DNA from: Sphingobacteriales bacterium
GTDB taxonomy: Bacteria; Bacteroidota; Bacteroidia; Chitinophagales; CAIOSU01
Direction of reading: 5' to 3'
NCBI GenBank assembly: GCA_027486795.1
Contig: JAIXOI010000040.1
Location: 10,972-74,971 of the forward strand
Length of the DNA stretch: 64,000 nt
Positions 2,352-59,705 of the stretch are shown in pieces (position 1 is the first letter of the stretch; every line of letters starts with the position of its first letter). The translations under genes were made by a program, and so were the position numbers. The notes under the pieces were generated by a model. The model was not told where the DNA came from. It made no database searches and saw nothing but the letters and a program-made list of their open reading frames with translations.

Positions 2352-3524
2352 ATGACCAACCAGCTGATGCGCTACATTTTGGTAGCCCTGTTTTTTATGC
2401 TCTCTGCTCCTTCTTTTGCTCAGGACAATGTGGGTGTTGGAACCATTTCACCTGACCCTTCGGCAATACTAGACTTGAATGCCACCGATAAAGGTATTCT
2501 AATACCTCGTGTGACCCAAACACAGCGCTTAGCAATAGTAAATCCAGCTCAAGGGTTGATGGTGTATGATGTTACAGACAATACTTTTTGGTATTTTGAT
2601 GGAACCGTTTGGGTTCAGTCTATAGGTCTTCCTGGCCCTGCCGGTCCTGCTGGTCCTGCTGGTGCAAACGGAGCCAATGGCGCTACAGGCGCAACCGGTC
2701 CTGCTGGTGCTGATGGCGCAACCGGCCCTGCTGGTGCTACAGGAACAGCTGGTGCAACGGGCGCGACAGGTGCTGCTGGCTTAAACGGAGCGACTGGCGC
2801 AACGGGTGCTGCCGGTTTAAACGGAGCTACTGGTGCTACTGGTGTTACAGGTCCTACGGGTCCTACTGGCGCAGCTGGTCTAAATGGTGCAACTGGCGCA
2901 ACAGGAGCTACTGGTTTGAATGGTGCAACCGGAGCTACCGGGGCAACAGGACTTAATGGCGCTACAGGTGCTACCGGGGCAACAGGACTTAATGGCGCTA
3001 CAGGTGCTACCGGATTAAACGGTGCTACTGGCGCAACTGGTGTTGCAGGTCCAACTGGAGCCACTGGCCCAACGGGAGCTGCTGGCAATATATACACTGC
3101 AACTGGCACTACCGATATAAGTTTGGCTAGGACTACTACGGCAACTTACGCCAACATGCCTGGTATGAGCGTAACCTACACTCCAACTAATGGTACCGCA
3201 AAAATTTTCTTTTCTGCATCTGGAACCCACACTGGCACGCCAACAGCGGCACAGTTTGTTGTGTTCCGTATTCTAGTTAATGGTGCAGCTGTAAATGGTA
3301 GGGGAGCTGCTTATTCAGTGGGTGCTGCCGATTTTGATGATGTTTTTGGTACTGAGTCGCACAACGTTTGGGGTGCCTCTCTTTGCGTTCCTGTTACCGT
3401 GCCAGTTGGTGTAGGTACAACAATACAGGTTCAGTGGTTATATGACAGCCAGTTCGCGAATACTATATTCAATAACGTGGCTACCCAAATGAATGCAAAT
3501 CGGAGTTTAATAGTAATTGATTGA
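2352..3524 (+). CDS. secreted collagen-like triple-helix repeat protein with conserved N- and C-terminal globular modules
   Basis: I place the start at [24 protein letters not shown] (signal peptide) rather than the ORF-track start at 2247. There are 51-52 uninterrupted G-X-Y triplets. The C-terminal domain of about 145 aa is homologous to that of the next gene. Confidence 0.8.
2625..3086 (+). repeat. collagen-like Gly-X-Y tract (about 51 triplets; GAT/GLN/GPA units)
   Basis: Hand count of triplets from [10 protein letters not shown]... to ...GPTGAAG. The 9/27/36-nt periodicity is visible in the DNA. Confidence 0.9.
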
Positions 3525-3547
3525 TAAAATTGAGTATAAATTATTGA

Positions 3548-6217
<2,670 letters not shown>

Positions 6218-6239: not shown

Positions 6240-6539
6240 ATGAAAGCTTTATTTATAACACTTTTAATGGCAAGCATCACTTTCGGTGCTATGGCTCAGC
6301 AAAAACCAGGGGATAACACCCGGACGGTTACTTTTGACTCGGCCGAGCCTACTGTAAAAGTAGATGCAGATGCTCCGGCAAACTCTACCTCTGCTAATAG
6401 GGTAGAATATGTTAGTCCAGAGCCAACTGTTAAAGTAATAAAAACAACCAATCCAGCTGCTGTTGGTGCACCTCGTGTTGAGTTTACCTCACCTGAGCCA
6501 ACCGTGAATACCAGCACTAGTAAGAAAGACGACGAATAG
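6240..6539 (+). CDS. small secreted protein with three (S/A)EPTV(K/N) repeats
   Basis: Signal peptide MKALFITLLMASITFGAMAQ. Repeats: DSAEPTVKV, VEYVSPEPTVKV, VEFTSPEPTVNT. A hairpin follows the stop codon. Confidence 0.5.
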   Translation: MKALFITLLMASITFGAMAQQKPGDNTRTVTFDSAEPTVKVDADAPANSTSANRVEYVSPEPTVKVIKTTNPAAVGAPRVEFTSPEPTVNTSTSKKDDE

Positions 6540-6549
6540 TATATCTTTT

Positions 6550-6573
6550 GGCCGAGGGCTAAAATCCTCGGCC
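6550..6573 (+). terminator. stem-loop after the small repeat-protein gene
   Basis: ggccgagg / cctcggcc form an 8-bp perfect stem with an 8-nt loop. There is no clear T-run. Confidence 0.35.
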
Positions 6574-14961: not shown

Positions 14962-17793
14962 ATGGCTGAAACAGAAACCCTGCAGAGCGGCGCGTCCGTA
15001 ATAGATTTAGACCCTAAAAAGTACATCATCATCAAAGGCGCCAAGGTGCACAACCTGCGCAATGTTGATGTGGCCATACCCCGCAACAAGCTGGTGGTGG
15101 TTACGGGTGTATCGGGTTCGGGCAAGTCGTCCATTACCATCGATACCCTTTTTGCTGAGGGCCAGCGCCGCTATGTAGAGAGTTTGAGCAGCTATGCGCG
15201 CCAGTTTTTGGGCCGCATGAACAAGCCCGATGTGGAGTACATAAAGGGCATTTGTCCGGCCATTGCCATTGAGCAGAAGGTAAGTACGCGCACCACGCGC
15301 TCAACAGTGGGCTCGCTTACCGAGATATACGATTACCTGCGCCTGTTGTTTGCCCGCATGGGCCGCACCTACTCACCCATTTCGGGCGAGGAAGTAAAGA
15401 AGCACACCGTTGATGATGTAGCCAGCTACGTAATGGGCTTAGAAGAAGGCGCCAAAGTGCAGGTGCTAATACCCATGGCGCACCACGACAAAGCGAACCT
15501 AGAAAAAGAGCTACAACTATTGGTGCAGAAGGGCTACAGCAGGGTAGCCGACGAAGCGGTGGTGTATAAGATTGATGAATTGCTGGAGGATAAAGCCCTC
15601 TATAAAACCTACAAAGACAAGGATACTAAGTTTGTATTGATTGACCGCCTGGTGGTAAAACACGGCGAGGAGGAAGACGAAACCCGCATGCGCATATCAG
15701 ACTCGGCACAAACGGCCTTTTTTGAGAGCTTGGGTATTTGTGTAATTGAGGTATTGGGCCAGGGCAAGCGGGAGTTTAACAACTTGTTTGAGTTGGATGG
15801 GATGCGTTTTGAAGAGCCAACGCCGCACTTTTTCAATTTCAATAGCCCTTTTGGGGCATGCAAAACCTGCGAGGGTTTTGGCTCAGTAATGGGCATTGAT
15901 GAAGATTTGGTGGTGCCTGACAAAAACATGTCGATTTACGAGGGGGCCATTGCCCCTTGGCGTGGCGATAAAATGGGCGAGTGGCTGAAACCGCTGGTAA
16001 AAAATGCGTTGGCGATGGATTTCCCCATCCACCGCTCGTATAAATTCCTTACCGACGAGGAGAAGCAATTGGTTTGGCAAGGCAATAAGTACTTTGAGGG
16101 GTTGGATGCCTTTTTTGCCTACCTAGAAGAGAATGCCTACAAAATACAGTACCGCGTAATGCTAAGCCGCTACCGTGGCCGCACCAAGTGCCCCGAGTGC
16201 GGTGGCTCTCGCTTGCGCAAGGATACACAGTACGTGAAGATTGGTGGCCGGAACATTGCCGAGCTGCTCTTGATGCCCGTAGATAAGTTGTGGGAGTGGT
16301 TTAATGGCTTGGAGCTGAGCGACCACGACCGCCAGATTGGCAAACGCATATTGATAGAGGTGAATACCCGCCTGGGCTTGATGTTGGAGGTGGGCTTGCC
16401 TTACCTTACCATGAACCGCGTGAGCAACACGCTTTCGGGTGGTGAAACACAGCGCATTAACCTAACCCGCACCCTGGGTAGCAACCTTACCGACTCATTG
16501 TACATATTGGATGAGCCAAGTGTAGGTCTGCACCCACGCGATACCAAACGCTTGGTGGGCGTGCTAGAGCGCCTGCGCGACCTAGGTAATACGGTAGTGG
16601 TGGTGGAGCACGAAGAAGAAGTAATGCGTGCGGCAGATTATATAGTAGATATGGGTCCGCGTGCCGGCAGGTTAGGTGGCGAAGTGGTTTTTCAAGGCGA
16701 TTATGCCGATTTGCCATCGAGCAAAAGAAGCCTTACCAGCCAATACCTGAACGGTATATTGCAAATACCTACCCCAACTACCCGCCGCAAAAGCAGCAAC
16801 AAGATAAAACTGACAGGTGTAACCCAACACAACCTGAAGGATGTGAGCATTGAGATACCGCTAAACGCCCTTACGGTGGTTACGGGGGTGTCGGGTTCGG
16901 GCAAAACTACTTTGATAAAACAGGTGTTTTACCCAGCATTGAACCAGTTTCTGGGCAGTGCGGGCGAGAAACCAGGTGCTTACGAGGAACTTACGGGCGA
17001 CTTAAAGCAGATTGACGTAGTAGAGTTGGTGGATCAAAACCCGATTGGCAAATCATCGCGAAGCAACCCGGTAACGTACATTAAGGCTTACGATGCCATC
17101 CGCGAACTGTTTTCGCATGTGCAACTGTCCCGTTTGCGTGGCTTTAAGCCTAAGCACTTCTCGTTTAACGTAGAGGGTGGCCGTTGCGAGGTATGTAAAG
17201 GCGATGGCGAGATAGTGGTGGAGATGCAATTCCTAGCCGATGTGCACTTGGTATGCGAAGAGTGTGGTGGCAAGCGTTTCAAAGAAGAAGTATTGGAGGC
17301 CCAATACCGCGGCAAGAGCATATTTGATGTGCTAGAAATGAGCGTGGATGAGGCCATTGAGTTTTTCGATAAAGAGAAAGACATCCGTGAGCGGTTGCAA
17401 CCCTTGCAAGATGTGGGCTTGGGCTACGTAAAGCTGGGGCAGAGCAGCAGCACCCTATCGGGCGGCGAGGCGCAAAGGGTAAAGCTGGCTTCGTTTTTGG
17501 GCAAGGGCCATAGCGGCAACCGTGTGTTGTTCATCTTCGATGAGCCTACTACAGGTCTGCATTTCCATGATATTGCCATATTAATGAAAGCCTTTGATGC
17601 TTTAATAGATATAGGCCACACCATTATCGTCATCGAGCACAACGTGGAAGTTATCAAAAATGCCGATTGGGTTATAGACCTCGGCCCCGAAGGCGGCGCC
17701 CCTGGCGGCGAACTACTATACCAAGGCACCCCAGAAGGCTTGGTAAACGTAGAGCGCTCTTACACCGGTCAGTTTTTGAAAGGGAAGATGTAG
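14962..17793 (+). CDS. uvrA: excinuclease ABC subunit A
   Basis: 943 aa with two ABC ATPase modules (two copies of GVSGSGKS/T and two LSGGE signatures) and zinc-finger Cys clusters (CKTCEG, CPECGG, CEVCKGDG...CEECGG). Confidence 0.97.
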   Translation: MAETETLQSGASVIDLDPKKYIIIKGAKVHNLRNVDVAIPRNKLVVVTGVSGSGKSSITIDTLFAEGQRRYVESLSSYARQFLGRMNKPDVEYIKGICPAIAIEQKVSTRTTRSTVGSLTEIYDYLRLLFARMGRTYSPISGEEVKKHTVDDVASYVMGLEEGAKVQVLIPMAHHDKANLEKELQLLVQKGYSRVADEAVVYKIDELLEDKALYKTYKDKDTKFVLIDRLVVKHGEEEDETRMRISDSAQTAFFESLGICVIEVLGQGKREFNNLFELDGMRFEEPTPHFFNFNSPFGACKTCEGFGSVMGIDEDLVVPDKNMSIYEGAIAPWRGDKMGEWLKPLVKNALAMDFPIHRSYKFLTDEEKQLVWQGNKYFEGLDAFFAYLEENAYKIQYRVMLSRYRGRTKCPECGGSRLRKDTQYVKIGGRNIAELLLMPVDKLWEWFNGLELSDHDRQIGKRILIEVNTRLGLMLEVGLPYLTMNRVSNTLSGGETQRINLTRTLGSNLTDSLYILDEPSVGLHPRDTKRLVGVLERLRDLGNTVVVVEHEEEVMRAADYIVDMGPRAGRLGGEVVFQGDYADLPSSKRSLTSQYLNGILQIPTPTTRRKSSNKIKLTGVTQHNLKDVSIEIPLNALTVVTGVSGSGKTTLIKQVFYPALNQFLGSAGEKPGAYEELTGDLKQIDVVELVDQNPIGKSSRSNPVTYIKAYDAIRELFSHVQLSRLRGFKPKHFSFNVEGGRCEVCKGDGEIVVEMQFLADVHLVCEECGGKRFKEEVLEAQYRGKSIFDVLEMSVDEAIEFFDKEKDIRERLQPLQDVGLGYVKLGQSSSTLSGGEAQRVKLASFLGKGHSGNRVLFIFDEPTTGLHFHDIAILMKAFDALIDIGHTIIVIEHNVEVIKNADWVIDLGPEGGAPGGELLYQGTPEGLVNVERSYTGQFLKGKM

Positions 17794-17886
17794 GTATTTT
17801 CGATTTTAGATTTACGAGGTACGATTTTACAGGGTTGATATAACGGCCATTATCAGTTTTAGCATACGTTTCTGAGCCTTTTAAAA

Positions 17887-17977
17887 GGCGTGTCATCCTG
17901 AGCCTGTCGAAGGGTGCGCGCGATTGCATACCCGCCGCAGCTTTTTCAGCGGAGGTGGGCATGTTGAGGTGAGTATT
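17887..17977 (+). repeat. left arm of the 91-bp inverted repeat (core tgtcatcctgagcctgtcgaagggtgcgcgcg)
   Basis: Its reverse complement matches 18865..18955 at 88 of 91 positions (hand alignment). Confidence 0.9.
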
Positions 17978-17981
17978 GCAT

Positions 17982-18045
17982 CCCAGAAGGCTTGGTTAAC
18001 TTAGTGCACTGTTGTAAGGGTTGGTTTTTTAGAGGGAAAATGTAG
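17982..18045 (+). pseudogene. decayed duplicate of the last about 21 codons of uvrA
   Basis: The ungapped alignment with 17730..17793 gives 50/64 identities (hand count), in the same frame and ending in the same ..atgtag stop (PEGLVNLVHCCKGWFFRGKM* versus PEGLVNVERSYTGQFLKGKM*). Confidence 0.6.
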
Positions 18046-18196
18046 CGTGACATAAATTGTTAGGCCTAATGTCGAAAATTAAGTAAATTTACCTCGAAAG
18101 CAGGGAGAAGTATTTCTCGCACCTTTTGGAAGGGCTTGCTTATCCTTATGGAAGGGATAAATAACTACCTCCGAGGCAAATCACAATGAATCAGTT

Positions 18197-18234
18197 AACC
18201 TCAAATGAGTCGCATCTTATTTGAGGTTTTTTTT
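18197..18234 (+). terminator. rho-independent terminator with no adjacent plus-strand gene (possibly the ancestral uvrA terminator)
   Basis: aacctcaaat / atttgaggtt stem followed by a run of 8 T. Confidence 0.55.
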
Positions 18235-18428
18235 ACTGATTTAATTCTTGCTAATGATCCAAAATTACATTTAGCAAAACGGAGGTTGAAAAATGTTTTT
18301 CAACACCCCCATAGGACAAGATTTAAAAGCCTTATTTCACAAGGCTTAGGGCTGTGGAAATCTCTATTTTTGGAAAATAAATTTGGTAGTTTTATCGCCG
18401 AAACTATTTGTAGGCCTAGCTTTTGGCA

Positions 18429-18460
18429 TGTCATCCTGAGCCTGTCGAAGGGTGCGCGCG
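18429..18460 (+). repeat. internal copy of the 32-nt repeat core
   Basis: Identical to 17891..17922 and diverging after the core. It lies just 3' of the GIY-YIG gene. Confidence 0.85.
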
Positions 18461-18497
18461 TGGGCCTGCTGATGCGAGCGATAGCTCTCAAACTACC

Positions 18498-18833
18498 TCA
18501 AACGTCTAATTCGTCGACAGGACCCTCCCCAGTTTTAGCATTGCCTTTACAGGCAGCCAACTCAGGCAATATATCCCAATTGCCGGCAATTATGGCTTCT
18601 TTCTTTTTTCTGTTCCAGCCCTTGATTTGCTTTTCCCAAGCAATTGCTTGTAGTATATCGTTGAAAATCTCGTTATAGACTAATGATACTGGTCGCCTAC
18701 CATAAGTAAAAGCTTTTGGGTTGATACCCGCATTATGTTCATTCACCCTTCTGTCTACATTATTGGTAATGCCAGTATAATACAAACCATCGGCACAAAT
18801 GACTATATAGACATAATAGAGTTTCATGGTCAT
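18498..18833 (-). CDS. GIY-YIG nuclease family protein (small stand-alone URI-domain type)
   Basis: KLYYVYIV...GLYYTGITNNVDRRVNEHN and EKQIKGWNRKKK motifs. The start may be 18827 (MKLYY). Confidence 0.9.
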   Translation of the reverse strand: MTMKLYYVYIVICADGLYYTGITNNVDRRVNEHNAGINPKAFTYGRRPVSLVYNEIFNDILQAIAWEKQIKGWNRKKKEAIIAGNWDILPELAACKGNAKTGEGPVDELDV

Positions 18834-18864
18834 GAAATTAGCGAATTGTCGTTAATTTAGGTGT

Positions 18865-18955
18865 AATACTCATCTCAACATGCCCACCTCCGCTGAAAAA
18901 GCTACGGCGGGTAAGCAATCGCGCGCACCCTTCGACAGGCTCAGGATGACACGCC
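18865..18955 (-). repeat. right arm of the 91-bp inverted repeat
   Basis: Reverse complement of 17887..17977 with 3 mismatches. A further partial, diverged reverse-orientation copy abuts it at about 18945..18995. Confidence 0.9.
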
Positions 18956-19011
18956 TTTCCATCTCGTTTCAAATGAGGCTAGGATGACATGCCTCTTGAA
19001 GTAACGAACAC

Positions 19012-19052
19012 ACAAAAAAAGAAACGGCCCAAAGCATCTGCTCTGGGCCGTT
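19012..19052 (-). terminator. bidirectional hairpin terminator downstream of queF
   Basis: aacggccca / tgggccgtt stem, flanked by an A-run on the plus strand (a T-run on the minus strand) and by ttttt on the plus side. Confidence 0.6.
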
Positions 19053-19073
19053 TTTATAAGGTATGTGTAGTAA

Positions 19074-19511
19074 TTACATAATCACATCAAAAGTGTCTTC
19101 GCTGCCCACCCAATCGCGGAACTGCTCGTTGCCGCCACGTACTTTCCAATCGCTATCAATGGTCAGTTTTGAACTGATACCACCGCGAGGGTTGAAAATC
19201 ATGGTAATGCGCAAGCGCTCTGGGTCGTATACGTCAATCATATCATCATATACTATGTTTATCAAGCGCTCGTACGACACGATAATGTCGCGCAATTGAT
19301 ATACATATTGCTTCAATGATTTTAGCTCAATTACTTTCTTCTTAGGGTAGAAAGTCATGTACAAAGTTGCAAAATCAGGCTGCTCATGCACACCTAGGAA
19401 CGTGCACTCAGGCACTTTAATTTTGATTTCGTAAGCTCCTTTTGCAGGGTTAGGAATCGCTTTTAGGATTTTACGGTCAATCTTGTCGTAAAGTTTTTTC
19501 TCGTGGGCCAT
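19074..19511 (-). CDS. queF: NADPH-dependent 7-cyano-7-deazaguanine (preQ0) reductase, type I
   Basis: About 145 aa with a tunnel-fold pattern. It carries the QueF motif region ELKSLKQYVYQLRD and a Cys in VPECTFLG. Confidence 0.8.
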   Translation of the reverse strand: MAHEKKLYDKIDRKILKAIPNPAKGAYEIKIKVPECTFLGVHEQPDFATLYMTFYPKKKVIELKSLKQYVYQLRDIIVSYERLINIVYDDMIDVYDPERLRITMIFNPRGGISSKLTIDSDWKVRGGNEQFRDWVGSEDTFDVIM

Positions 19512-19695
19512 GGTATTGAGGCAGTTGTTAGATTCAATGCAAAGAAAACCAATAAATTGGCAAGTAGGTAGTATTTAGGCCATACTTAATGCCCCAGCGC
19601 CTATTTTAAGTCATTTTAGTATTTAGACTGCTTATAAATTAGCCTAAATCTGCTTTTTGCAGCAACTAAAGGTGCTATGGCGGTGTTCATTTAGG

Positions 19696-19703
19696 TATAT
19701 TTG
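19696..19703 (+). promoter_or_regulatory. candidate -7 promoter box (TAnnTTTG) for the ferritin gene
   Basis: tatatttg ends 21 nt upstream of the ATG at 19725. Confidence 0.3.
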
Positions 19704-24671: not shown

Positions 24672-24739
24672 GGCGTGTCACTCTGAGTCTCGTTTCAAAC
24701 GAGATCGAAGAGCGCGCGCGTGGGCTGTTGAGACGAGGG
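24672..24739 (+). repeat. diverged copy of the tcatcctgag...cgaag..gcgcgcg repeat family (with an inserted hairpin)
   Basis: The sequence is ggcgtgtcactctgagtctcgtttcaaacgagatcgaagagcgcgcgcgtgggctgttgagacgaggg. The tail resembles the extension of the 18429 copy. Confidence 0.6.
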
Positions 24740-57845: not shown

Positions 57846-59705
57846 TTATTTGATTTCGTTTTTCTCCCACCAACGATGGAGTATTATGGTGAGCCAAACA
57901 CGGTTGTAAAGATAATCTTTGCCCGATAAATATTGTGCTACCAATGTTTTAACTGCCTCTGGCTGCATTAATCCGGCCTTTTTAATCAAATCGGGGTGGG
58001 TATATTGGTCAATCAAATGTCTCAACTCTTTTTTCAACCATTGGTTTATGGGCATGCCAAAACCCCACTTGGGCCTATCAAAATACTCCTTTGGCACGTA
58101 ATCGTAAAGTACCTGTTTCAATAGGTACTTTAGATTGCCGTCCTTCATTTTTAGGCTTGGGTGTACGTTTAAGGCAAACTCCACCAAACGGTAATCCAGC
58201 AGCGGTACACGGCTTTCTAGGCTGTAGCGCATACTGGCGCGGTCAACCTTTACCAGCAAATCGTCGGGCAAATAGTAGCGCATATCAAACACCGCTTGCT
58301 CTTCGGCTGGGCTAAGGGTGCGGCCAGTTACATGGTTGTCTTCATCCAACCTTATGTGGCTCTTTTTGTTAAAGTCGGCCGTAAAATACTGTCCAAAATC
58401 TCCTTCGCTGAAGTAGTACTGCTCTTGGCTAAAAATATGCGATTTCAATCGGGCTTTATCGGTATACTTAAACATTAAGGCAGCGCGCTGCTTGCGGTTA
58501 TCGCCCATAGATAGTGCCGCGGCAATTGGTGTGCGCAGGGCACTAACCAAAGGATTGTTGAGCCGCTGTGCCCAATTGTAAAAGCCATAGCCCATATATG
58601 TCTCATCGCCCCCATCGCCGCTAAGGGTCATGGTTACGTGTTGGCGGGCCAATTTGCTCACCAGCATGGTTGGCACCGAAGATGAATCGGCAAACGGTTC
58701 GTCGTATACGTCAATTACTTCTTCAAATAGGTCAATTGCCTCCTGGTAGCTTACCGTAAATTCGTGGTGCTTGGTGCCCAAGTATTCGGCCACTTTACGG
58801 GCATGTTCGGCCTCATTAAAGCTCGATTCTTTAAAACCGATAGAGAACGTATTTACTGGTTCGCTGCTGATGCTTTGCGCCACAGCAGTAACTAGGCTGC
58901 TATCAATTCCACCACTTAAAAAGGTACCGAAAGGCACATCAGCAATCAGGCGGTATTGCACGGCACTAGTCACCAGTTCTTTCAATTTGGCTTTGGCTTC
59001 GGCCTCATTGATTATTACCTGCGGTGTTATCTTTTCGTTAACCTGCCAATAAGGTTTCAGCTCAAGGTTGTTGGTGCTATTTAACAGTCCCGTGTACCCT
59101 TGCGGAAACTTCTTTATCTCGTTGTAAATAGAGTTGGGTGTGGGCACGTAGCCCAAGTATAAGAACTCTTTTACTGAGTTATAATCAACGGTTAGCTTGT
59201 TTTTTACCTCTGGCAAAGCGGTTAGTGCTTTCAGTTCCGAAGCAAAGACAAAAATGCCATCGTGATGGTAATAATATATTGGCTTGATGCCCAACCTATC
59301 GCGGCAAAGGAAAACGGTGTTCTCTAGCGTATCATATATGGCAAGGGCAAACATACCGTTCATTCGGCTCACAAATGTTGGCCCCCATTGCGCGTATGCT
59401 TCCAGTATTACTTCTGTATCGCCGTGGGTTTTAAGGGTAACGTTTAGGTCCTTCGCAATCTCTTGGAAATTGTATACTTCTCCGTTAAAAATGATTACAT
59501 ACCGCCCATCTGCGCTGTACATGGGCTGGTTGGCCCCTGTTGATAGGTCGATGATGCTTAAGCGCCTATGGCCCAAGCCTGTATGCCCATTATAGAAAAA
59601 CCCGTCTGCATCGGGCCCGCGGTGGCGCAAGGTGGTAGTCATGGCTACCAGCTCATCCTTAGAAATGTGTTTACCCGAAGTAAAAAAACCCGCTATGCCG
59701 CACAT
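57846..59705 (-). CDS. asparagine synthase (glutamine-hydrolysing)-like amidotransferase, second copy
   Basis: MCG N-terminus and SGGIDSS PP-loop. Paralog of 51247..53154. Confidence 0.9.
   Translation of the reverse strand: MCGIAGFFTSGKHISKDELVAMTTTLRHRGPDADGFFYNGHTGLGHRRLSIIDLSTGANQPMYSADGRYVIIFNGEVYNFQEIAKDLNVTLKTHGDTEVILEAYAQWGPTFVSRMNGMFALAIYDTLENTVFLCRDRLGIKPIYYYHHDGIFVFASELKALTALPEVKNKLTVDYNSVKEFLYLGYVPTPNSIYNEIKKFPQGYTGLLNSTNNLELKPYWQVNEKITPQVIINEAEAKAKLKELVTSAVQYRLIADVPFGTFLSGGIDSSLVTAVAQSISSEPVNTFSIGFKESSFNEAEHARKVAEYLGTKHHEFTVSYQEAIDLFEEVIDVYDEPFADSSSVPTMLVSKLARQHVTMTLSGDGGDETYMGYGFYNWAQRLNNPLVSALRTPIAAALSMGDNRKQRAALMFKYTDKARLKSHIFSQEQYYFSEGDFGQYFTADFNKKSHIRLDEDNHVTGRTLSPAEEQAVFDMRYYLPDDLLVKVDRASMRYSLESRVPLLDYRLVEFALNVHPSLKMKDGNLKYLLKQVLYDYVPKEYFDRPKWGFGMPINQWLKKELRHLIDQYTHPDLIKKAGLMQPEAVKTLVAQYLSGKDYLYNRVWLTIILHRWWEKNEIK

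Follow-up and report, generated by a model that had tools for sequence, protein, structure and literature searches.

Some free-standing GIY-YIG homing endonuclease genes displace gene ends, as in the case of the Allomyces mitochondrial atp6 ORF and of phage genes of the Seg/I-TevI type. In Neisseria meningitidis, the 94-aa single-domain GIY-YIG protein SsnA represents the Ssn site-specific single-stranded DNA nucleases with their NTS/SRM repeats; SsnA recognises the repeats as single-stranded DNA, not RNA, and its authors called the NTS-ssnA-NTS layout "identical to" an insertion sequence (Chenal et al. 2025, PMC11893778). CGTC-tagged REP repeats (Di Nocera et al. 2013, PMC3733652), which include the Neisseria dRS3 and are reported from Bacteroidetes as well, are short hairpins, one end of which bears an unpaired ..GTC.. 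tag; they were noted to have no dedicated transposase and to be found repeatedly within or close to uvrA, uvrB and further repair genes.

Here we describe a locus between uvrA and queF in which a plus-strand core, a leader of about 90 nt, a nuclease gene and a minus-strand core probably make up a module akin to NTS-ssnA-NTS that was rearranged later. Judged from its sequence, the locus does not look like a homing element cut into uvrA. The window below is the whole 64-kb stretch of DNA that was analysed.

The module and its inverted arms

The locus has the following features.

14962..17793 (+): uvrA, 943 aa, intact (ORF listing, Pfam UvrA domains)
17726..17793 (+): native 3' terminus of uvrA, the working and upstream member of the duplicated pair, encoding the conserved ..SYTGQFLK.. 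motif
17794..17883 (+): spacer from the uvrA stop to the first core, variable among relatives
17884..17980 (+): left arm, a solo, truncated copy made up of the core and ~60 nt from the start of the cassette leader
17887-17922 (+): left-arm core, hairpin part 17892-17916
17978..18045 (+): pseudo-end, duplicating the final 68 nt of uvrA in decayed form
18046..18424 (+): 379-bp segment of the long form only, with a terminator-like hairpin inside
18197-18228 (+): that terminator-like hairpin, with a T run to 18234 (terminator scan)
18425..18460 (+): core 3' of the GIY-YIG gene, inverted terminal repeat of the compact module
18498..18833 (-): GIY-YIG nuclease gene, 111 aa, single domain (Pfam PF01541, E = 1.3e-18)
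18834..18919 (-): leader of the GIY-YIG gene, with a second imperfect hairpin, CCCGCCGYAGC..loop..GCGGAGGTGGG
18862-18958: right arm, pairing inverted with the left arm
18920..18958 (-): core 5' of the GIY-YIG gene (36-nt core 18920-18955), outer part of the right arm
18959..19000 (-): what remains of another core-like unit whose hairpin has a long loop (repeat families D4 and I3), complete in L004 and L178
19022..19053 (no strand assigned): terminator-like hairpin by the queF stop (scan match on the minus strand)
19074..19511 (-): queF-like gene (Pfam QueF), the conserved right-hand neighbour
24677..24712 (+): solo hairpin of the core family, GTCACTCTGAG[TCTCGTTTCAAACGAGA]TCGAAGAG, 6 kb away, with a compensated stem, a long loop and no adjoining GIY-YIG gene

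The core, GGC[G/A]TGTCATCCTGAGCCTGTCGAAGGGTGCGCGCG, is 36 nt long and occurs at 17887-17922 (+), 18425-18460 (+) and 18920-18955 (-); when a 25-nt core probe is allowed up to 3 mismatches, the 64 kb yield no further copy and 100 shuffles yield none at all. The two plus-strand copies form a direct repeat spaced 538 nt apart, and the inner one had been picked out by the sequence-only reading as a 32-nt core, which is real and reaches 36 nt. The same reading had bounded a GIY-YIG unit by a 91-bp inverted repeat with 88/91 identity. This repeat exists as well and extends to 97 nt in each arm (93/97 identical), with an abrupt loss of identity at either end. The left arm breaks inside the leader, 29 nt ahead of the position equivalent to the GIY-YIG ATG, and its leader stretch is also found 5' of the GIY-YIG genes in L086 and L087. 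The left arm represents core plus leader with an arbitrary truncation within the leader, and the arms are not transposon ends.

In a BLAST comparison, homology to cassettes lying by unrelated genes begins 3 nt outside the 5' core and extends to the 3' core or to the contig limit; such cassettes occur by a Por_Secre_tail gene in L085, by a cytochrome c gene in L086 and L087, and in L088. The real unit is the compact stretch of 534 bp at 18425-18958 (36-nt core, ~90-nt leader, GIY-YIG ORF and inverted core), delimited by the 36-nt cores and not by the 91-97-nt arms. The repeat-bounded unit proposed earlier is retained, being absent from two relatives and present elsewhere in unrelated neighbourhoods, and only its boundary has moved.

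The uvrA-queF gene order is common to L001-L004, L171, L173 and L178. L004 (GCA_945901065.1), which differs from the window by ~6% of nucleotides over the final 1.3 kb of uvrA, has the same structure (95-nt arms at 91% identity, direct cores again spaced 538 nt, and uvrA-end copies 252 nt apart as in the window and 74% identical); because L004 is an independent assembly, the structure is not an assembly artefact. Empty sites, which had been suggested as a check, were found in L171 and L173 (uvrA 94% identical). There uvrA ends at the same codon as in the window, and the counterpart of the terminator at 19022..19053, shared with queF, lies directly 3' of the stop and is followed by queF. This places the module 3' of the uvrA stop, and the insertion into uvrA that had been proposed is not borne out. 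In the short form of L002 and L003, exactly the 538 bp between the direct cores is absent, and at the L002 junction the left flank of the first core is joined to the right flank of the second. L178 and L179 bear the module at the same site in the opposite orientation; since dS between the window and L178 is higher in the GIY-YIG gene (0.67) than in uvrA (0.44), the two orientations may be separate arrivals and not an inversion. Of the spacer at 17794-17883, only the first ~29 nt and the last ~14 nt are common to L002, and the corresponding spacer measures 31 nt in L172 and ~20 nt in L178.

The arms are 96% identical to each other in the window and 91% in L004, even though four-fold sites of uvrA differ by 0.22 between these two genomes, and their 3' parts are unlike between the window and L004 yet similar to the partner arm within each genome. 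Gene conversion keeps the two arms alike, and the recent homogenisation guessed at earlier fits these lineage-specific arm sequences. The long, nearly identical arms and the conservation of the interval in L004 might also be taken to mean that the whole 1075-bp interval 17884-18958 is a composite transposon-like mobile unit carrying the pseudo-end and the terminator as cargo. This is highly improbable: only the compact core-to-core unit is found elsewhere, and likewise at the same site in L002/L003 and L178; the inner arm end is an arbitrary leader point, with a different breakpoint in the comparable case of L085; and conversion explains the arm similarity.

The duplicated end of uvrA

The uvrA orthologues at 94-99% identity are of equal length. 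The last 68 nt of the gene in the window (17726-17793) align without gaps with 17978-18045 at 53/68 positions, which includes the 50/64 stretch reported earlier, and this duplicate is the top match anywhere in the 64-kb window. The 64-nt similarity is significant in a shuffle control over 3 kb downstream (50 against a best score of mean 29.0, sd 1.3 and maximum 35 in 300 shuffles). As had been claimed, the two copies have a common frame and stop codon, reading TPEGLVNVERSYTGQFLKGKM and IPEGLVNLVHCCKGWFFRGKM up to the stop. The pseudo-end is not part of an ORF because stops sit immediately upstream, and 10 of its 21 codons are changed. It is nearest to the real end of its own lineage (53 > 51 > 50 > 49 > 47 > 45 of 68). 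The pseudo-end is a decayed duplicate that arose in this lineage.

Against the empty-site end of L171, the working uvrA end matches at 57/68 positions, in keeping with 84% identity across the final 1.3 kb of the gene. The working end is therefore native, and the idea that an element supplied the C-terminus falls away. Downstream of the pseudo-end, the terminator noticed earlier at 18197-18234 is confirmed as a terminator-like hairpin with a T run. It lies in the 379-bp segment, which, of all the loci retrieved, occurs in L001 and L004 alone, is 98.4% identical between the window and L004, has an RNA fold z of -2.58 and gave no significant Rfam match.

A significant in-frame duplicate with the same stop codon, a terminator-like hairpin 150 nt 3' of it, a GIY-YIG gene less than 500 bp away and the existence of empty sites are what one would expect had a homing-type GIY-YIG element cut the uvrA 3' end, inserted, brought or preserved a replacement C-terminus, and stranded the old end with its terminator. 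A GIY-YIG catalytic domain near a decayed duplicate of a gene 3' end is indeed what the locus shares with free-standing homing genes. We consider this origin very unlikely, however. The empty sites have neither the 379-bp segment nor its terminator, which argues against a stranded old uvrA terminator. The working end resembles its empty-site counterpart to the same degree as the gene at large, which makes it native, and the insertion follows the stop codon. Unlike in the organellar precedent, the nuclease gene is not enclosed by the two uvrA ends; between them are only the spacer and the truncated core-plus-leader copy. The short form of L002/L003 and the opposite form of L178 carry the module without the duplicate. 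Finally, the 111-aa protein is a single domain without the DNA-binding extension of homing GIY-YIG enzymes, and the homing-type assignment made earlier gives way to an Ssn/UPF0213-like one.

The core hairpin and the GIY-YIG protein

The core hairpin has the form TGTCA-stem-GAGC..TCGA-stem', with a variable stem of 4-6 bp, an invariant GAGC..(T)CGA interior that includes two G.A pairs, and a loop of 4-5 nt or longer. Relative to the surroundings of uvrA, the motif is enriched ~60-fold near GIY-YIG homologues, with 251 sites in 454 kb around 80 homologues vs 4 in 460 kb around uvrA genes (9 in each set of shuffled controls). It stands on both sides within 300 nt in 46 of the 80 homologues, and 36 of the 80 have an inward-facing pair as in the window; solo copies and tandem arrays also exist away from the GIY-YIG gene. 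Across 106 distinct motif sites, the stem covaries strongly: pair 13-31 is Watson-Crick in 100 and takes 3 forms (in shuffles, a mean of 35 and a maximum of 54), and pair 14-30 is so in 101 and takes 4 forms. The tag is TGTC in 98. The window cores have a T.G mismatch at the stem base that 0 of the 106 relatives share. A structural scan for the hairpin returned 4 sites in the window vs 0.08 in shuffles; with four motif copies in 64 kb, the genome may lack a large repeat family.

The small GIY-YIG gene recognised earlier at 18498-18833 (-) is confirmed. Its catalytic Tyr/Tyr/Arg/His/Glu columns are invariant, and its dN/dS of 0.05-0.19 indicates purifying selection. The leader is retained 5' of GIY-YIG genes in other contexts (L085, L086, L178), where the stem of its hairpin is kept and the loop varies in length. 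The AlphaFold model (pLDDT 83.7) has a GIY-YIG fold, and its nearest PDB entries are UPF0213 and Slx1 proteins, with UPF0213 among the Foldseek top hits; profile matches among solved structures are B. halodurans BH0048 (PDB 1ZG2, E = 3e-21) and E. faecalis EF2693 (PDB 1YWL, E = 9e-17). The protein is of the same size and fold as the UPF0213 / COG2827 proteins (BH0048, EF2693, YazA, YhbQ), but its identity to YazA or YhbQ (33-39%, E 1e-6 to 1e-8) is lower than to hairpin-flanked alphaproteobacterial homologues of Sphingomonas and Methylobacterium (44-49%, E 1e-18 to 1e-20); the Sphingomonas homologue has CTGAGCGAAGTCGAAG hairpins on its flanks. To our knowledge, no repeat association has been reported for UPF0213 proteins. 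The protein resembles the Ssn/UPF0213 type.

Because UPF0213 proteins are the nearest solved structures and the gene is under purifying selection, the protein could instead be a housekeeping UPF0213-type enzyme, with the hairpins serving the small gene in RNA form, whether as terminators, stabilisers or regulators, and presence or absence arising by deletion and ordinary recombination. The T.G in the window stem would be a normal G.U pair in RNA, and REP repeats lie mostly downstream of coding regions, many of them plausibly transcribed (PMC3733652). This explanation is unlikely, since the motif flanks the gene in opposite orientations, so that one copy would read as the complement on the gene's own transcript. 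The solo copies and tandem arrays away from the gene, a hairpin nested within the loop of another element in L178, and the same module in unrelated contexts also speak against it, as does the biochemical precedent of SsnA.

Proposed course of events and comparison with known systems

By analogy with SsnA, the nuclease of the proposed module may recognise its own hairpin in single-stranded DNA through the unpaired TGTCA tag and the stem, and nick a few bases upstream. The empty sites, and the same module in other contexts, show that the module came into the short stretch that separates the uvrA stop from the terminator shared with queF; since neither a target-site duplication nor a fixed insertion target could be made out for the module, movement is deduced from distribution only. 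A secondary illegitimate recombination at a 3-nt microhomology (GCA) would then have fused a truncated copy of core and leader to position 17978 and duplicated the last 68 nt of uvrA, most likely by homology-facilitated illegitimate recombination or by template switching at hairpins. The upstream copy would have remained the working end and the downstream copy decayed, and conversion between the arms would preserve their likeness. In the L002/L003 lineage, 538 bp would have been lost by recombination between direct cores. The sequence in which these events took place is uncertain. Between the window and L004, identity is 98-100% in the 379-bp segment and part of the pseudo-end, while neutral sites of uvrA differ by 22% (0.22 at four-fold sites), which points to recent exchange of this block or selection on it, and either blurs dating and order.

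The repeats share with CGTC-tagged REPs a short hairpin with an unpaired ..GTC.. tag; they differ in the TGTC tag (98/106), in a shorter stem with an invariant GA-GA interior, and in lying beside uvrA, not inside. As in REPtrons (RAYT, IS200/IS605-like Y1 transposase genes), a gene is bracketed by inverted short hairpin repeats that are also solo elsewhere, in an apparently domesticated or semi-mobile single-copy unit, but the enzyme here is a GIY-YIG nuclease and not an HUH tyrosine transposase. We know of no strand-transfer chemistry for the GIY-YIG nuclease of such modules. Compared with Ssn, the stem is 4-6 bp with an invariant interior and a loop of 4-5 nt or longer, whereas NTS has a perfect 7-8-bp stem and a 3-nt loop; the published SRM search pattern has no match in the window or in any of the 80 GIY-YIG loci; and there are few copies in this window vs hundreds per Neisseria genome. 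Both systems have a small single-domain GIY-YIG protein (94 aa in SsnA, 111 aa here), oriented hairpin repeats on both flanks of the gene that begin with an unpaired GTCA(T/C) tag, and further repeats that are solo and clustered. In layout, the module with its predicted nuclease matches NTS-ssnA-NTS.

Boundaries of the GIY-YIG unit and its protein

The two inverted arms downstream of uvrA match at 93 of 97 positions, and the similarity breaks off sharply at both ends. Two copies of a 36-nt hairpin repeat (the core) lie at the outer ends of the arms, and a third is found at 18425-18460. A 25-nt core probe with up to 3 mismatches finds only these 3 copies in the 64 kb and none in 100 shuffles. 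The features of the region are:

14962-17793, plus strand: uvrA
17884-17980: left arm, with a core at 17887-17922 (plus strand)
17978-18045: decayed duplicate of the last 68 nt of uvrA (the pseudo-end)
18046-18424: 379-bp non-coding segment
18197-18234, plus strand: terminator-like hairpin
18425-18958: relocatable unit, 534 bp, bounded by 36-nt inverted cores
18498-18833, minus strand: GIY-YIG gene
18862-18958: right arm, with a core at 18920-18955 (minus strand)
19074-19511, minus strand: queF-like gene

The inverted arms, the duplicated uvrA end, the GIY-YIG ORF and the plus-strand terminator described in a sequence-only reading of this DNA are all real. That reading also took the element to be bounded by the arms; the repeat-bounded unit stands, but its bounds are the 36-nt cores. 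In other contexts, cassette homology starts 3 nt outside the 5' core and runs through the leader and the ORF to the 3' core or the contig limit. The unit is present in at least three other gene contexts, and GIY-YIG proteins of 82%, 78% and 65% identity adjoin quite different genes. Because homology beside unrelated genes extends from core to core, the relocatable unit is 18425-18958, and the 1075-bp interval between the arms was rejected as the mobile unit. The terminal cores of this compact unit are 35/36 identical and stand in inverse orientation on either side of the ORF, with gaps of 37 nt on the downstream and 86 nt on the upstream side. The same layout is repeated in an independent assembly (L004, GCA_945901065.1), whose final 1.3 kb of uvrA diverge from the window by about 6% at the nucleotide level, and the structure in the window is thus not an assembly artefact.

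The left arm consists of a core and ~60 nt from the start of the GIY-YIG leader, and it breaks off 29 nt short of where the start codon would be, an arbitrary point in the leader. It is a truncated partial copy of the 5' part of the cassette, in the orientation in which the cassette is intact at a related locus (L178). Long target duplications were considered as a regular by-product of core insertion and rejected, since the sole other candidate, at L085 (a cassette beside unrelated genes), proved to be what is left of an older cassette whose core is different. The leader breakpoints of the window arm and of L085 are also unequal (11 nt versus 21 nt after GGTGGG), and a fixed 97-nt element end was dropped. 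The L085 remnant (2689-2860) lies directly upstream of the intact cassette and comprises the different core (GTCACATTGAGCGTAGTCGAAATG), a leader and the first ~8 GIY codons, a cassette-beside-cassette arrangement. No short target-site duplication is recognisable at the uvrA-queF site, where the flanks are rearranged in every occupied form; GIY-YIG proteins are not known to act as bacterial transposases.

The protein of 111 aa has PF01541 as its sole Pfam match (E = 1.3e-18, residues 6-78), and its AlphaFold model shows one compact domain followed by C-terminal helices. Y9, Y18/Y19, R29, H33 and E67 are invariant among 40 homologues, and the Tyr-to-Glu spacing of 58 residues equals that of Y6-E64 in SsnA. 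It is nearer to homologues in Sphingomonas and Methylobacterium than to YazA/YhbQ; among solved structures, the UPF0213 proteins 1ZG2 and 1YWL come closest, followed by Slx1, and NCBIfam has no family for it. The protein is under purifying selection (dN/dS 0.05-0.19). A weak tblastn match at 59454-59609 was rejected as a further GIY-YIG gene, being within a 619-aa ORF unlike a GIY-YIG protein. Tails such as ..FDSAQPD.., ..RQTQDDR.. and ..RAHHD.. are present on many annotated proteins of the family; these tails are translated flanking hairpin repeats, and they thus result from read-through or wrongly called ends and are no genuine part of the protein.

States of the uvrA-queF site and the duplicated uvrA end

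Related loci were gathered by exact-protein look-ups. The long form of the site, as in the window, is found in L004. In a short form (L002 and L003), the uvrA stop is followed by ~95 nt, a core, the GIY-YIG gene on the minus strand, the leader and an inverted core, and what is missing is exactly the 538 bp that separate the two direct cores. The L002 junction joins the left flank and the G-type first bases of the first core to the right flank of the second core, which is the residue expected of a deletion between direct cores. Two further loci (L178 and L179) have the module in the same place, but with uvrA and the GIY-YIG gene on one strand, and at L172 a core lies 31 nt past the uvrA stop, after which the contig ends. 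A simple inversion between the cores that would link both orientations was not confirmed, the synonymous divergence between the window and L178 being greater for the GIY-YIG gene than for uvrA. Empty sites are found downstream of uvrA at L171 and L173, where UvrA is 94% identical to that of the window and the stop codon is at the same position. The GIY-YIG gene, the core, the pseudo-end and the 379-bp segment are all absent from these two loci, and a terminator common to uvrA and queF, the counterpart of window 19022-19053, is located 20-75 nt past the uvrA stop.

Three side observations concern these relatives. At ~1841-1868 of L178, the loop of the second leader hairpin (CCCGCCGTAGC..GCGGAGGTGGG) contains a complete nested core hairpin (TTGTCATCCTGAGCTTTTGTCGAAGGGT); the bare hairpin can apparently insert independently. 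The GIY-YIG gene of L004 (4001-4332) is apparently frameshifted, as tblastn splits it into residues 1-79 and residues 68-111, two pieces with overlapping positions in the locus, and the nuclease therefore seems dispensable there. At L169, where UvrA is 87% identical, the downstream gene is another one and no GIY-YIG gene is nearby, several core-like hairpins lie directly past the uvrA stop (6340-6560; e.g., GTGTCATGGTGAGCGGAGCCGAACCATCC).

The last 68 nt of uvrA (17726-17793) align ungapped with 17978-18045 at 53 positions. Over the 64-nt stretch noticed earlier, 50/64 positions match; when the 3 kb downstream were shuffled 300 times, the best score had a mean of 29 (sd 1.3) and a maximum of 35, so that the similarity is significant. 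The pseudo-end is still in frame and ends at the same stop codon, but 10 codons out of 21 are altered, with the conserved SYTGQFL motif among them. It matches the real end of its own lineage at 53 of 68 positions and those of ever more distant relatives at 51, 50, 49, 47 and 45, which identifies it as a decayed local duplicate and not an import. The working uvrA end matches the empty-site end at 57/68, a level equal to the 84% found over the final 1.3 kb of uvrA, and it is thus native. At the pseudo-end junction only GCA is shared with the uvrA sequence, which points to an illegitimate join at the level of microhomology.

The sequence-only reading had proposed a homing-type insertion into the end of uvrA that left the old end and its terminator stranded. 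Homing GIY-YIG enzymes have the nuclease joined to a DNA-binding domain for a long double-stranded target, and where they displace gene ends, the old end and the new one are separated by the element. The window protein differs from the homing endonucleases (I-TevI, Seg, organellar) in being single-domain, without their extra DNA-binding domain. Between 17793 and 17978 there is only a spacer and the truncated core-plus-leader copy, whereas the GIY-YIG gene lies 450 bp past the pseudo-end, outside the interval between the two ends. Together with the stop codon shared by the empty sites and the native working end, this argues against homing into uvrA.

The recent homogenisation of the repeats, which the same reading had considered, fits the comparison with L004. 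The arms are 96% identical to each other in the window and 91% in L004, and their inner parts differ between the two genomes, yet resemble the partner arm within each genome; four-fold sites of uvrA differ by 0.22 between window and L004. Gene conversion between the arms explains their young appearance next to a pseudo-end that looks old. Window and L004 are 98-100% identical in the 379-bp segment and in the 3' part of the pseudo-end, whereas neutral sites nearby differ by ~20%; this block was either recently exchanged between the lineages or is under selection, which limits dating. In addition, window 19100-19700 (queF and surroundings) is ~99.5% identical to L004 and the flanking genes ~94%, a mosaic suggesting recent recombination tracts between the two lineages. 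The uvrA terminus of the window reads ..GKM* (ATG TAG; 17785-17793), like the pseudo-end (18037-18045), whereas close relatives all have ..KL* or ..KI*; the working gene may have received a short patch from the pseudo-end by gene conversion, or the difference may be an old polymorphism.

The 379-bp segment itself is 98.4% identical to its counterpart in L004, and in a BLAST search against all fetched loci it was found only in L001 and L004; 17794-18497 gave no match against plasmids. Its first 195 nt, ending in the terminator, fold better than shuffles (z = -2.58). In Rfam, nothing reached the gathering score in the whole 64 kb, and in E-value mode 17700-19100 gave chance-level matches only (best L10_leader, 23.7 bits against 44, E = 0.24). 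The segment could encode a small RNA, or it could stem from a recent exchange.

A covarying hairpin class near GIY-YIG genes

A profile of the 40 homologues found at least 577 loci in species-representative genomes, of which 80 were kept. A simple core pattern occurs at 251 sites in the 454 kb around these loci, compared with 9 in each shuffled set and 4 in 460 kb around metagenome uvrA genes (among the matches listed); these control genes are distant relatives, of 74% identity or less among the matches listed, and are useless for empty sites. The core sites cluster within 300 nt of the GIY-YIG gene. They flank it on both sides at 46 of the 80 loci and form an inward-facing pair, as in the window, at 36. 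The hosts belong to Bacteroidota, Nitrospirota, Nitrospinota, Ignavibacteria, Eremiobacterota and others in the profile scan, and a Sphingomonas plasmid homologue of 44% identity has flanking hairpins with the same CTGAGCGAAGTCGAAG interior.

The core has the consensus T-GTCA-NNCT-GAGC-YYGT-CGA-AGNN. Of 106 distinct sites, 100 and 101 have Watson-Crick bases at the two variable stem pairs, with 3 and 4 pair types, compared with means of 35 and 32 for shuffled partners; the interior GA..GA and G:C are fixed by the collecting pattern, and their constancy thus adds nothing. An invariant or nearly invariant unpaired TGTCA stands directly 5' of the covarying stem, with the tag being TGTC in 98 and CGTC in 6 of the 106 sites. 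The hairpin has a variable stem of 4-6 bp, the GA-GA-G:C interior and a loop of 4-5 nt or longer, which can expand into a further small hairpin (24677-24712, L004, L178). Single-sequence folding of the arm is no better than shuffles (RNA z = -0.5, DNA z = -0.1), and the support for the hairpin is therefore the covariation across loci.

A fourth hairpin of the family stands solo in an intergenic region of the window 6 kb away (24677-24712, plus strand: GTCACTCTGAG[TCTCGTTTCAAACGAGA]TCGAAGAG); its stem is compensated (CTCT/AGAG), its loop is expanded to a small hairpin and no GIY-YIG gene is beside it. At five loci (L022, L051, L053, L065 and L069, ~2500-4000), in Flavobacterium, Chitinophagaceae, Ginsengibacter and other genomes, the GIY-YIG gene lies between tandem arrays of 90-180-nt hairpin-bearing units, which resemble BIME clusters of REP elements.

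Proposed mechanism and comparison with known systems

The region is best described as a module of nuclease and hairpins, Ssn-like in kind, that occupies the uvrA-queF spacer and was secondarily duplicated in part. Across this locus and its relatives, the module occurs as empty sites, both orientations, a truncated copy, a nested hairpin and cassette-beside-cassette remnants. The nuclease would recognise its own hairpins as single-stranded DNA, and the module probably moves rather than being merely lost. One illegitimate join would have produced the 68-nt duplication, possibly by homology-anchored illegitimate recombination of incoming DNA, by unequal exchange between alleles with the cassette in opposite orientations, or by template switching at stalled hairpins. 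As a tentative proposal, and one that we consider rather unlikely to hold in all its parts, the core-GIY-core units of Bacteroidota would be truly mobile, their hairpin class, with its tandem G.A interior, would have been missed by published searches, the hairpins would provoke illegitimate joins that duplicate neighbouring gene ends, and the 379-bp segment might be a captured small RNA gene. For annotation, such modules explain why many spurious small ORFs are called, why Bacteroidota GIY-YIG proteins have odd C-terminal tails (..FDSAQPD.., ..PFDRLRMT..), and why contigs break beside their genes.

The Ssn family (Chenal et al. 2025, PMC11893778) comprises ~94-aa single-domain GIY-YIG proteins encoded between oriented hairpin repeats; the catalytic residues mutated in SsnA were Tyr, Tyr and Glu. 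The Neisseria repeat is termed NTS (CGTCATTCCCGCGMAVGCGGGAATCYRG) and the general class SRM; the enzymes bind their repeat exclusively in single-stranded form, cleave only such DNA, a few nt 5' of the repeat, and reduce transformation by repeat-bearing DNA (PMC11893778). The authors liken NTS-ssnA-NTS to an insertion sequence and compare it with RAYT/REP; its mobile-element behaviour was proposed, not shown, and the role outside Neisseria was left open (PMC11893778). The window module has the same layout, a GTCA(T/C) tag, the conserved catalytic residues, a small single-domain protein and hairpin repeats within ~500 bp on both sides, and it probably works like an Ssn module. The published SRM pattern, HGTCWYN(0-2)YYVSBRHN(0-5)WNVSBRGN(0-2)RNCYNB, has no match in the window or in the 454 kb around the 80 GIY-YIG homologues; the module is thus called an Ssn-like variant, not a proven member of the SsnA/cd10448 family. 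The principle is unchanged from the family first described in 2025, and the addition is modest: distribution-level evidence for Ssn-type movement (empty sites, the unit elsewhere, one site with either orientation), a separate hairpin class with strong covariation that is widespread in Bacteroidota, occurs in several other phyla and is unmatched by the published pattern, and a worked example of repeats remodelling the surroundings of a repair gene with the gene undamaged.

The module also resembles an insertion sequence in its terminal inverted repeats, its presence at different sites and the empty sites at L171 and L173. It differs from a REPtron (RAYT plus REP), which has an HUH/Y1 transposase, in having only GIY-YIG. 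A literature search with literal motif strings returned unrelated primer matches only. CGTC-tagged REPs have a CGTC tag, an 8-9-bp stem, a 4-5-nt loop and a short 3' tail (Di Nocera et al. 2013, PMC3733652). They have been catalogued in Bacteroidetes among others, are without a dedicated transposase, and recur in uvrA, uvrB and other repair genes (PMC3733652). The place of the window module next to uvrA may be one more case of a REP at a repair gene, or a coincidence.
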